A DNA stretch of 9,206 bases, from IMG/VR virus record IMGVR_UViG_2534681940_000023, positions 1 to 9,206 of that record; one strand, given 5' to 3'. Position numbers and translations under genes: made by a program. Source of the DNA: a virus. Taxonomy: Duplodnaviria > Heunggongvirae > Uroviricota > Caudoviricetes. Within the stretch, counting starts at the first letter, position 1, and every line of letters starts with the position of its first letter. Under the pieces are notes generated by a model. It had not been told where the DNA came from. It saw only the letters and a program-made list of their open reading frames with translations, and did not search any database. Of this stretch, positions 1,651 through 3,786 are shown piece after piece.

Positions 1651-2300
1651 GCCGCCATCTCCCTTACCAGTTTTTCTGCCTGCTGGCGAACCTGCGCCAG
1701 AAAGGCCTCACCACATGCCTCAAGTTCATCGCGCCCGATGTAGCTGATTGCCGGTCCCTTCCAGGTCTTGTCGAAAACAGCAATAGCACCAGCGAAGAAA
1801 GCGCCTGTCGGCACCTGCTTCTCATCCTTCGGGATAAACCAGGCAGGCAGTTCAAAACCAATACGCCCGCGAATAAAAGCAATATGATCTGCATCTTCCG
1901 GCCACCACACTTCGCTGGTGGCAGCTTTGATCAGGAAAACATAGCGCCCGCCTTTATCACGCATGGCACTGGCATGCTTCATGATGTAACGCATGCCGGT
2001 GATGTATTGCCCCTCATGCTGACTGGCGCGGCTGTATGGGGGATTACCAAAGGCAGCACCTTTAAGCTCCGCAAGACGTTCTGACCAGTCATGCGCCAGC
2101 GCGTTGTCTTCCGCCGTGTAATACGCGGCACATTTGGCGTTATCACCGTCAGTGAACAGATCCAGAACAAACGGACCAAACAAGGTGTTAATTCCCCAGA
2201 AAATGTTGTCCGGCGTGCGCCACTGATCGCCCACTTCCTTCAGTTCATGGGCTGGTTTGTTCCGCAGTTCTACCAGCGCCTGGCAATATTTATTACTCAT
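1647..2300 (-). CDS. Phage N6-adenine DNA methyltransferase (Dam-like)
   Basis: 217 aa with the catalytic NPPY motif ('FGNPPYSRA'), typical of phage N-6-adenine methyltransferases. The start overlaps the upstream micro-ORF stop as TAATG. Confidence 0.8.
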   Translation of the reverse strand: MSNKYCQALVELRNKPAHELKEVGDQWRTPDNIFWGINTLFGPFVLDLFTDGDNAKCAAYYTAEDNALAHDWSERLAELKGAAFGNPPYSRASQHEGQYITGMRYIMKHASAMRDKGGRYVFLIKAATSEVWWPEDADHIAFIRGRIGFELPAWFIPKDEKQVPTGAFFAGAIAVFDKTWKGPAISYIGRDELEACGEAFLAQVRQQAEKLVREMAA

Positions 2301-2302
2301 TA

Positions 2303-2392
2303 AGCCCCCACGTAAAAAGCATCCGCAATGTCTCCGGAAGTACAGCCCGGATGGGCTTCAATGAATTTCTGAACGTCATTTAACAGACTCAT
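2303..2392 (-). CDS. Possible 29-aa micro-ORF (MSLLNDVQKFIEAHPGCTSGDIADAFYVGA), translationally coupled
   Basis: ATG at 2390-2392 lies 5 nt after AGGGGGTG and 3 nt after the O-like TGA stop. Its own TAA overlaps the Dam ATG (TAATG). It is below the ORF-track size cut-off and rests only on RBS and coupling. Confidence 0.25.
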
Positions 2393-2394
2393 GA

Positions 2395-3375
2395 TCACCC
2401 CCTGAATCCTGCCGGGATCTGGCTGTAGTCCACGTTGTCGTAACTGGCTTTGAAGTACGGGTCTTCACGTTTTTCTATGTGCGTGCTGACGGACGGCGAT
2501 AAGCGCAGGGAAAGCTCATCCCATTTTTCCCGCAACTTCGACGGGCTGAGCACGTTACGGCACCAGAACGGATCGCGGCTGACGCGGCTGTACATCTCGC
2601 AGATTTGTTTGTGAGTACGACCATCCTGCACACACATCAGGCGAATTTCGTTTGCCCATGCTGTCCAGTTCGGTTCTTTGGGACGAACCACCTCGCCGTC
2701 ACATTCGGCGGCCTGCTCGTACAGGGCGATGATTTTTTTCCAGAGCCACTGTGCGCAGGTCAAATCATCCTGCGTTCCCCACTGGCGCTTTTTAGGGCTG
2801 AATACAACCGCATCAGGATGGCGAGTTAAAAACTCCTGTTCAGCCGTTTGCGTGTCCGGTTGCGAAGCGTCCGGACGAGAAGAGGTTTTATTCTCTGTAG
2901 TAATCTCTGTTGTATTCTCTGTAAGATCGAAATTGGTTTTCCCTTCTCCGCGGCGAGGGGTTTCCCGTGTCCGCTGTGAAGGCTTTCCCTCCTCCGCGAA
3001 ATTGGGTTTTACAGTTTCCCGAAAACGGGTTTCCCCATTTCGGGAAAACTGATTGTTTTCATTGATAAGTTCATTAAGGCGCTCACAATCTATACGGTAG
3101 AACATTTTGTGCTCAAGACGCTTGTTGGTTTCAACCAAAATGCCTCTGGACACAAGATGCTTACGCGCTACAGCCTGTTGTTCAAATGTAAGTCCGGTTT
3201 CGTGTTGTATCTCTTCACGCGTTTTATGTACGCCTTCCGCTGCATGTGCTTTATCCTGCCAGTAAAAAATCTGACCAAAGAAAATAACAGCGTGCGGACT
3301 TCCCATGTATTTAACGAGCCCAGGGTAATAAGCAACCGGATGCCCAAAATCGAGCAGAAGATCAGACGGACGCAT
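2395..3375 (-). CDS. Lambda-O-like replication initiator (replisome organiser) with an internal origin
   Basis: The N-terminal domain precedes an iteron array that lies inside the coding sequence, as in lambda O/ori-lambda. It resembles yfdN/yfdO-type defective O proteins of CPS-53. The likely start is ATG 3375 (GGGAGGTG 5 nt upstream); GTG 3381 is also possible. Confidence 0.7.
   Translation of the reverse strand: MRPSDLLLDFGHPVAYYPGLVKYMGSPHAVIFFGQIFYWQDKAHAAEGVHKTREEIQHETGLTFEQQAVARKHLVSRGILVETNKRLEHKMFYRIDCERLNELINENNQFSRNGETRFRETVKPNFAEEGKPSQRTRETPRRGEGKTNFDLTENTTEITTENKTSSRPDASQPDTQTAEQEFLTRHPDAVVFSPKKRQWGTQDDLTCAQWLWKKIIALYEQAAECDGEVVRPKEPNWTAWANEIRLMCVQDGRTHKQICEMYSRVSRDPFWCRNVLSPSKLREKWDELSLRLSPSVSTHIEKREDPYFKASYDNVDYSQIPAGFRG
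2885..3080. repeat. Candidate replication origin: 3 tandem ~12-bp repeats (TTCTCTGTA) plus 5 iterons (consensus GGkTTTCCCnnyTCCGCG) at 23-24 bp spacing, then an AT-rich stretch
   Basis: Iteron copies start at about 2934, 2957, 2981, 3004 and 3027. The last two contain CCCGAAAACGGG-type dyads. The AT-rich segment 3050-3080 (tgattgttttcattgataagttcattaagg) follows. All of this lies inside the initiator gene. Confidence 0.6.
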
Positions 3376-3595
3376 AGCCACCTCCCAGACGCTTAAACAT
3401 TTTCCCGGACTGAAAAGCCACCAGCGGATAACTCAGGGTATGAGTACGCCCCTGAACCTGACAGACAACCTTCTGGCTTTCTGTGTTGACCAGACAAACC
3501 CGCAGAACGTGACCGTTGCTGGTGGTGAACCACTGCCCCACACGGGGGCAGTGGTTGTATCGGTGATACAGAGAATTCACAACACGACGAATCAT
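3362..3595 (-). CDS. Hypothetical small protein (77 aa, Cys/His-containing)
   Basis: RBS GGAGGTG before ATG 3595. ATGA overlap with the upstream gene, and its stop overlaps the O-like start. No family recognised. Confidence 0.45.
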   Translation of the reverse strand: MIRRVVNSLYHRYNHCPRVGQWFTTSNGHVLRVCLVNTESQKVVCQVQGRTHTLSYPLVAFQSGKMFKRLGGGYASV

Positions 3596-3786
3596 GGACG
3601 CACCTCCGCCGTTGTGATGTATTTAACCGGGCTGCCTTTCATTGCGATGATTTCACACATCTCCGCTGCTTTACGTTCCGCTGTTTTCCTGGATTTATAG
3701 CGGCGGTGCCAAACAGACGTATCCGTGCGAACTGATACATCGTTTCTGTATTCCGTAGTGGAGATGATGATTTCGTAACTAATCAT
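3592..3786 (-). CDS. Hypothetical small protein (64 aa)
   Basis: Strong RBS AAGGAGGT, with the ATG overlapping the rha stop as ATGA (3783-3786). No family recognised. Confidence 0.5.

Follow-up and report, generated by a model that had tools for sequence, protein, structure and literature searches.

The 9,206-nucleotide (nt) stretch of DNA analysed here (hereafter the window) is the early-right region of an Escherichia coli lambdoid prophage, with its operon on the minus strand. It contains a replication initiator gene of the lambda O family, a micro-ORF (ORF, open reading frame) and a Dam methyltransferase gene, in this order, and no recognizable gene for a helicase loader. We found that the tail class of lambda-O-type initiators is sharply associated with the loader gene downstream: O-family initiators with and without a P loader are told apart by one short tail at the C-terminus. 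The loader-less design of the window is real, and probably functional. Our reading is that the window holds a complete and naturally loader-less lambdoid module of the SfV/cdtI/mEp460/CPS-53 type, in which the initiator tail, shared with the host primosomal protein DnaT, would dock host DnaB-DnaC. Judging from sequence comparisons, we assign this reading a probability of slightly below 0.6. The locus itself belongs to a common and already sequenced module type, standard in SfV-, cdtI-, mEp460- and Stx-type lambdoid phages, and the comparative pattern is the interesting part.

Architecture of the initiator

Window ORFs were assigned to families by Pfam and PHROGs matches, and domain limits within the initiator were taken from an AlphaFold2 (AF2) model with its predicted local distance difference test (pLDDT) scores. 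The features on which the argument depends are the following.

2395-3381, minus strand: initiator, 328 amino acids (aa)
3040-3324, minus strand: initiator residues ~20-114, winged helix (AF2 pLDDT ~90; helix-strand topology of a winged helix-turn-helix, wHTH)
Initiator residues 118-178: disordered linker (AF2 low confidence)
2497-2847, minus strand: initiator residues ~179-295, all-helical C-terminal domain of lambda O type (AF2 pLDDT 95-98)
Initiator residues 296-328: tail region (AF2 low pLDDT, predicted disordered)
2398-2469, minus strand: initiator residues 305-328, C-terminal tail REDPYFKASYDNVDYSQIPAGFRG, predicted disordered, ending in IPxGFRG
2300-2392, minus strand: micro-ORF, 30 aa, remnant of yfdN
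1647-2300, minus strand: Dam (N6-adenine methyltransferase)

An earlier note on this DNA had given the order as O-like gene, micro-ORF and Dam, and the ORF coordinates on the minus strand bear this out; its range for the module, 2300-3786, also takes in a DUF4222 gene and a 64-aa phrog_7046 gene.

The initiator is 326 aa long in the NCBI call (ATG at 3375), compared with 328 aa for the ORF, and the identical protein is present on 107 contigs. It matches PHROG 391, 'replication initiation O-like' (E=6e-82), and has no Pfam, NCBIfam or PDB sequence match. Residues 150-270 of lambda O align with its C-terminal half (BLASTP E=1e-25, 35% identity over 133 aa). When the C-terminal 149 aa were searched exhaustively, 2,626 clusters were obtained at 50% identity, and a profile built from 119 of them matched lambda O residues 168-294 with E=1.9e-54. 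These two matches identify the C-terminal half as the lambda O C-terminal domain, and the initiator is assigned to the lambda O family by this domain. The domain has been assigned to P binding in lambda O (PMC6022878). No Pfam model detects it among 93 family members. Its fold may weakly resemble DnaD-like and SPP1 G39P helicase-loading domains; the DnaD-like/replisome-organiser C-terminal fold corresponds to Pfam Phg_2220_C (PMC5509034).

Several interchangeable types of N-terminal winged helix exist in the family, and the one seen here is presumed to be the origin-binding part. Among the 93 members these types include HTH_36 (21), DnaD_N (13), Phage_rep_O (10) and DUF1376 (10). Pfam finds no Phage_rep_O domain (PF04492) in the window initiator, for which the model shows another winged helix, and the family profile gives weak matches of the N-terminal domain to MarR/CAP winged helices. 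Since PF04492 occurs in just 10 of 93 members, Phage_rep_O does not define the wider family. The label 'O-like' used in the earlier note holds for the C-terminal half and fails for the N-terminal winged helix, which is of a different, swappable type. The C-terminal part that the note had taken as ~160 aa, starting with FLTRHPDAVVFSPKKRQWGTQDD, begins at residue 184 and comprises ~145 aa. No megablast match covering the N-terminal half (2930-3381) was obtained in 5,426 complete E. coli genomes. The same N-terminal domain occurs in P0056 (406 member sequences), joined to a C-terminal domain of SfV type and without a G tail (defined below).

Tail class and downstream loader gene

Loci were collected from 117 viral contigs with a degenerate DNA pattern for a conserved core peptide, supplemented by twelve contig look-ups. 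ORFs were called from stop to stop, and same-strand genes within 900 nt downstream were scored. Two tail classes recur in the O-domain family, designated G (...IPxGFRG) and W, the latter comprising lambda ...LDLTNTDWIYGVDL and the variant ...HWNSxEAWExxL; many more distant members end otherwise. The counts by class were as follows.

W (lambda-type) tail, 74 loci with room downstream (54 distinct sequences): P in 74, DnaC-like gene in 0
G (IPxGFRG) tail, 38 loci: P in 0, DnaC-like gene in 1, YfdN/PerC gene next in 31, DUF1627 gene in 3, neither in 3
~60-aa C-terminal extension containing 'AWxxIWxQ', 7 loci: P in 0, DnaC-like gene in 0

Proteins of the third class are initiators of 358-373 aa with a lambda-O-type domain (L110, L114, L125, L127, L158, L161 and L199). 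When W-tail proteins were looked up singly, a PF06992 gene came next in all six cases. Three of these six (P0088, P0118 and P0027) belong to the same N- and C-domain lineages as G-tail proteins, which indicates that the tail switches within lineages together with P.

The G tail also occurs beside DnaC-type genes. P0012 shares both its N- and C-domain types with the window protein (56% identity), ends in ...RPDNTVPPGFRG, and is directly followed by an IstB_IS21/Bac_DnaA AAA+ gene. Rac YdaU (L218:3120-3977), a DUF1376 protein without an O domain, lies directly 5' of the DnaC-like gene ydaV (L218:3984-4730). Its end, RQVNTVSLPDSAIPPGFRG, has nearly the same 19 residues as that of DnaT, RDVNTVSEPDSQIPPGFRG; the YdaU sequence closes with ...VSLPDSAIPPGFRG. 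With two different DnaC-like queries, each giving 80 viral loci, [IV]PxGFRG was found to terminate the product of the gene immediately 5' of a phage DnaC-like gene in 156 of 160 cases. These upstream genes include O-domain, YdaU-like and several other architectures, and the sequence preceding the tail differs among them. A search of viral contigs for close relatives of E. coli DnaC recovered two loci, 93-100% identical to DnaC. The ydaU-ydaV pair mirrors the host dnaT-dnaC operon, and YdaU is annotated merely as a DUF1376 protein.

The tail shared with DnaT

The initiator ends in ...YDNVDYSQIPAGFRG and E. coli DnaT in ...EPDSQIPPGFRG. The last nine residues, SQIPAGFRG in the initiator and SQIPPGFRG in DnaT, are identical at eight of nine positions and form the extreme C-terminus of both proteins. 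Among 107 DnaT orthologues, IPxGFRG is conserved apart from its third position, which varies as it does in the phage proteins. The rest of DnaT shows no similarity to the initiator. Its three-helix DNA-binding domain (PF17948) was not found in the initiator, and neither was its N-terminal oligomerisation/PriB-handoff domain, for which BLASTP returned a 23-residue match at chance level (E=0.013). The initiator was therefore rejected as a DnaT family member, as the tail alone matches DnaT.

SfV orf39 provides a further view of the tail. Its N- and C-terminal domains are different, yet its last 25 codons are common with the window at the DNA level. Sharing of this segment alone implies that the tail behaves as a separate module. 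In lambda O, the last five residues are essential (PMC6022878). How the PriA-PriB-DnaT preprimosome recruits DnaB-DnaC is stated to be unknown (PMC13377028, PMC11087952), and no direct contact between DnaC and DnaT has been demonstrated (PMC11087952). A literature search for SfV orf39/orf40 and for links between YdaU and DnaT returned nothing relevant, and in the literature searched the relation of tail class to loader gene is so far undescribed.

Absence of a loader gene

The absence of P, DnaC and DnaB homologues from the window, as given in the earlier note, was upheld by Pfam, PHROGs and tblastn. Models for P (PF06992), DnaC/IstB (PF01695) and DnaB (PF03796) match neither the initiator nor any other window ORF, and in tblastn of the window with lambda P, two other P proteins, and E. 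coli DnaC and DnaB no match was better than E=0.6. The note had further raised a loader just outside the window and a C-terminal domain corresponding to a known self-contained loader. The complete genome of phage cdtI (47,021 bp) has no annotated loader or helicase and no P, DnaC or DnaB match by annotation and tblastn, and the ~20-kb surroundings of the module in three relatives (mEp460_4F5, SfV and an E. coli prophage) likewise contain no such match and no such annotation. The domain search of the C-terminal half revealed no self-contained loader domain and no DnaT, DnaB-binding or DnaC-binding domain.

The window region is 95-99% identical, block by block, to mEp460, SfV, phage cdtI, and Stx2a and Stx2c phages, and thousands of E. 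coli genomes also contain prophages matching it. In ~2,084 of 5,426 complete E. coli genomes the flanks of the rep/dam junction are found, so the arrangement is no oddity of the window. The loader-less order is found in isolated phages, namely SfV, mEp460, PhiR29 and Stx2a phages. Phage CDT-1 transfers cdt-I to a recipient strain, according to the passage of PMC4606577 that cites Asakura 2007.

Presumed origin within the initiator gene

An origin-like structure is located inside the gene of the initiator itself, as seen in hexamer counts and base composition.

2935-3050, inside the initiator gene: iteron cluster, presumed origin (hexamer counts)
2889-2934: AT-rich stretch (65-68% A+T), presumed unwinding region

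The cluster comprises five TTTCCC and one GGGAAA (plus strand), three of them at 23-bp spacing; these six copies fall in ~110 bp, compared with seven in the remaining 9.1 kb. A near-palindrome (3015-3047) lies within the cluster. With respect to transcription, the AT-rich stretch comes directly after the iterons; it includes three 12-bp tandem repeats (2889-2924). Both elements fall within the linker-coding segment, as ori-lambda does in O (NC_001416 annotation). As a positive control, the same k-mer count detected the lambda iteron ATCCCTC, in four copies, at the corresponding position of O. Where the N-terminal type differs, relatives show repeated words of their own there (GGTCAAA in four copies, CGCAAAC in three), and a downstream ACAGAGA repeat is common to relatives with differing N-terminal types. 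We infer that the initiator binds these iterons.

The micro-ORF is a yfdN deletion scar

The micro-ORF begins with an ATG 2 nt after the initiator TGA, and its TAA overlaps the Dam ATG (TAATG). It had been reported as 29 aa; the frame exists, with a length of 30 aa from ATG or 32 aa from a GTG at 2398. In mEp460_4F5 and SfV a 489-bp gene lies between initiator and dam, corresponding to SfV orf40 and K-12 yfdN (162 aa). Both flanks of yfdN align base for base with the window, which lacks exactly 396 internal bases (132 codons) of the gene, in frame. The junction lies between 2315 and 2314, and the deleted bases correspond to L002:7476-7871. The micro-ORF retains the first ~28 and the last few codons of yfdN, and its N-terminus matches phrog_1324/23071. 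Full-length YfdN consists of an N-terminal winged helix and a PerC domain (PF06069, residues 98-149, E=7e-8, above the curated cut-off). The latter is deleted here, which leaves a remnant and not a member of the PerC family. What had been regarded as an unexplained extra is accounted for by the alignment, which identifies the micro-ORF as an ordinary stump of yfdN left by an in-frame deletion and no part of the replication machinery. The same alignment led us to reject a leader peptide or a small regulatory gene.

Among 5,426 complete E. coli genomes, 116 contain a 46-mer across the junction; they come from cattle, pigs, chickens, humans and water. These genomes are diverse and carry different initiator types. 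The same junction is present in phage cdtI, where the micro-ORF is unannotated. Among 80 close viral loci, which are 97-99% identical relatives suited to allele counts and not to estimates of diversity, 76 had a full-length or contig-truncated yfdN and 4 the deletion; a loader followed the initiator in none of the 80.

Proposed mechanism and alternative explanations

In the mechanism that we propose, the N-terminal winged helix would bind the iterons, and the C-terminal domain of lambda O type would assemble on them beside the AT-rich region. The C-terminal IPxGFRG-COOH may then serve as a docking peptide for DnaC-family loaders or for DnaB6-DnaC6. A phage that has this tail and no loader of its own could thereby mimic DnaT and so capture host DnaB-DnaC. 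Direct use of host DnaB/DnaC, as the earlier note had suggested, gains indirect support from a tail that is DnaT-like, excludes P and tracks DnaC-type genes, and gains none from the domain search. If correct, the mechanism would account for loader-less replication in a large group of toxin-converting phages of E. coli and Shigella.

A broader version of the proposal is more tentative, and we give it somewhat less than even odds. It holds that IPxGFRG-COOH is a portable docking signal for DnaC-family loaders or DnaB6-DnaC6, that the tail alone sets the loader in the lambda O family (the lambda type calling for P, the DnaT type for DnaC), and that the same signal is the missing link of DnaT to DnaB-DnaC. 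Initiators of phages and prophages, belonging to no fewer than four unrelated architectures, would have acquired it, and loader-less phages would impersonate DnaT. In either version the tail pattern leads to a specific hypothesis, testable with peptides, about the step from DnaT to DnaB/DnaC.

Several points weigh against docking of host DnaB-DnaC by the tail. A 2026 cryo-electron microscopy study proposes the N-terminal domain of DnaT, and not its tail, as the recruiter of DnaB/DnaC (PMC13377028). Before the last nine residues, the tail ...YDNVDYSQIPAGFRG departs from the consensus RDxNxxSxPDxxIPxGFRG seen beside DnaC-like genes. The loci are related and partly redundant, and come from one peptide pattern and one collection, so that the counts overstate independence. 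The evidence that cdtI is a working phage is second-hand, as given in the cited part of PMC4606577. No isolated phage with exactly this initiator was identified, and megablast left its N-terminal type unmatched in the 5,426 complete E. coli genomes. The window shows 9.2 kb of the prophage, and a loader of unrecognised type may lie elsewhere. Finally, DnaT without residues 154-179 has ~2-fold lower affinity for single-stranded DNA (ssDNA) and lower cooperativity (fragment 84-153 compared with 84-179 on dT30; PMC4132743), which suggests that the tail may act on DNA rather than on protein.

This last effect is the basis of an alternative in which IPxGFRG binds ssDNA or associates with itself and so stabilises the unwound origin (as well as filaments of DnaT), with the helicase arriving via the O-type domain, DnaA, PriA or transcription. 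The tail does contain Phe and Arg, and the C-terminal domain has the possible weak resemblance to DnaD-like and G39P helicase-loading folds described above. The effect on ssDNA binding by DnaT is small, however, and an element of this kind leaves unaccounted for both the mutual exclusion of tail and P (P in 0 of 38 G-tail loci and 74 of 74 W-tail loci) and the presence of the tail upstream of DnaC-family genes in unrelated architectures (156 of 160). We consider this explanation unlikely.

The module might instead be dead, that is, belong to a decaying prophage that no longer replicates, in the manner of CPS-53. The cryptic CPS-53 of K-12 shares the gene order; the 396-bp yfdN deletion also takes the dam promoter annotated in SfV; the upstream 553-aa ORF resembles a multi-gene run-on; and megablast finds the exact N-terminal type in none of the complete E. 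coli genomes. However, the K-12 initiator YfdO is a 122-aa C-terminal fragment, and CPS-53 is defective because of this truncation and not because P is missing. No such truncation is seen here, where initiator ORF, iterons and tail are intact and the identical protein occurs on 107 contigs. The earlier suggestion that the module is defective as in CPS-53 therefore finds no support, the same layout being present in cdtI, which the cited passage of PMC4606577 reports to transfer cdt, and the loader-less order being shared by the isolated phages SfV, mEp460, PhiR29 and Stx2a. The spread of the deletion allele (cdtI and 116 diverse genomes, with various initiators) is also hard to reconcile with a dead allele. 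We judge a dead module to be quite improbable.

A third alternative makes the winged-helix protein encoded after G-tail initiators (YfdN, DUF1627 and others) the counterpart of P, an adaptor bound by the tail, so that the deletion would cripple replication. A small winged-helix gene does follow the G tail almost always (YfdN in 31 of 38, DUF1627 in 3, with a 96-aa wHTH gene beside one DUF1627 locus), and the DNA mosaic boundary in SfV lies just before the tail-coding segment, which suggests that tail and yfdN travel together. YfdN, however, has the PerC transcription-activator domain, and PerC genes also follow P in P-containing modules (P0088 and P0118). A DUF1627 gene follows a DnaC-like gene in L217, one G-tail initiator (P0064) is followed directly by a methylase and lacks yfdN, DnaT and YdaU have the tail without such a neighbour, and in phage cdtI the gene is missing. 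The position of PerC genes after P, together with P0064, indicates that yfdN is the next gene of the operon and no stand-in for P. We regard the adaptor as very unlikely. YfdN or DUF1627 as a hidden loader was rejected on account of the PerC domain, the position after P or DnaC-like genes and the absence from some modules.

The slimmest chance is given to a loader or helicase that is encoded outside the 9.2-kb window or is of a type missed by current models: only part of the prophage is in view, non-homologous loaders continue to be discovered beside O-like genes (VdhL, PMC11087808) and several small operon ORFs have no assigned function, but the complete cdtI genome and the ~20-kb neighbourhoods in mEp460_4F5, SfV and the E. 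coli prophage are negative, and a lambdoid loader lies directly after the initiator, as P did in 74 of 74 loci.

Comparison with known systems

The module resembles lambda O-P in three respects. Its C-terminal domain is homologous to lambda O residues 150-294, its iterons and AT-rich region are found where the initiator gene codes for the linker, and within the pR operon it likewise follows cro and cII-like genes. Unlike in lambda, the N-terminal domain is not PF04492, no P gene (PF06992) is present downstream, and the essential ...TDWIYGVDL of lambda is replaced by ...SQIPAGFRG.

The loader-less modules SfV orf39-orf40-dam, cdtI orf46-dam, mEp460 and CPS-53 yfdO-yfdN-yfdM have the same order and tail and near-identical yfdN/dam DNA. 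Phage cdtI shares the identical 396-bp deletion, whereas most relatives have a full-length yfdN. YfdO and residues 207-328 of the window protein have 98% identity, but in CPS-53 the initiator is reduced to the 122-aa fragment. SfV orf39 differs in both its N- and C-terminal domain types and has the tail alone in common.

E. coli DnaT has SQIP(P/A)GFRG at its very end in common with the initiator, and dnaT lies just upstream of dnaC; DnaT acts upstream of the DnaC-dependent loading of DnaB (PMC13377028, PMC11087952). In contrast to DnaT, the window initiator lacks the DnaT N-terminal domain. In Rac YdaU-YdaV and in phage modules of an initiator and a DnaC-like gene, the initiator-side protein ends in ...PDxxIPxGFRG, but unlike the window these modules encode their own DnaC-family AAA+ loader directly downstream, and YdaU has a DUF1376 domain in place of a lambda-O-type domain. 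The domesticated lambda O/P-like pair DopC/DopE also combines an initiator-like HTH protein with a C-terminal element derived from DnaT (PMC5509034). In DopC, however, the DnaT C-terminal domain replaces the O C-terminal domain, the partner is a P-like protein, and iterons are lacking (PMC5509034).

Dam expression and gene labels

Dam matches PF05869 with E=1e-45, covering positions 3-167 of the 169 in the profile. The dam -35/-10 elements annotated inside SfV orf40 are lost with the 396-bp deletion, and consequently Dam in the window must be expressed from upstream transcription. The stop/start overlaps that link initiator, micro-ORF and dam are preserved by the in-frame junction, so that Dam is probably expressed solely by read-through and translational coupling.

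In RefSeq the Dam gene of this module is named 'phosphoadenosine phosphosulfate reductase' (NC_003444.1, NC_009514.1 and NC_019716.1), a label that probably stems from the PAPS-reductase-Dam fusion family phrog_33262. RAST and NCBI name the initiator 'primosomal protein I', probably after its nine-residue tail. Both labels are misleading, and the present analysis corrects them for the public records concerned.

Other genes in the window

The remaining genes of the window are listed below.

6361-6987, plus strand: cI
6063-6263, minus strand: cro
5441-6139, minus strand: cII/YmfL-like gene
3783-5444, minus strand: Ash/Rha region
3592-3786, minus strand: 64-aa gene, phrog_7046 (E=2e-45)
3362-3595, minus strand: DUF4222 gene, phrog_1153 (E=8e-43), overlapping the initiator start
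1324-1650, minus strand: protein with a LexA DNA-binding domain
938-1327, minus strand: RusA
109-1020, minus strand: KilA-N protein

A DUF4222 gene is a conserved companion of O-family genes and is found directly 5' of initiators with or without P (L090, L091, L212, L213 and L215). The 553-aa ORF at 3783-5444 (minus strand) is a run-on of three gene equivalents, with phrog_1170 at residues 1-108 and Ash and Rha at residues 263-552. It is overlapped in a different frame by a 130-aa ORF of the ProQ/FinO family (4639-5031, minus strand; PF04352, E=1e-13). In relatives of 95% identity, PGAP gives 'ProQ/FINO family protein' and 'Rha family phage regulatory protein' as separate genes.

The 108-aa protein encoded at 1324-1650 (minus strand) consists of the LexA DNA-binding domain alone (PF01726, E=3e-19), without a peptidase domain, and is possibly a non-cleavable LexA mimic. 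The LexA-domain gene after dam is kept in SfV, cdtI and relatives. At 7500-7950, between the genes on the cI side and homologues of yfdP/yfdQ, the G+C content rises to 0.55, compared with 0.41-0.47 in the flanks, and several overlapping ORFs are present on both strands.

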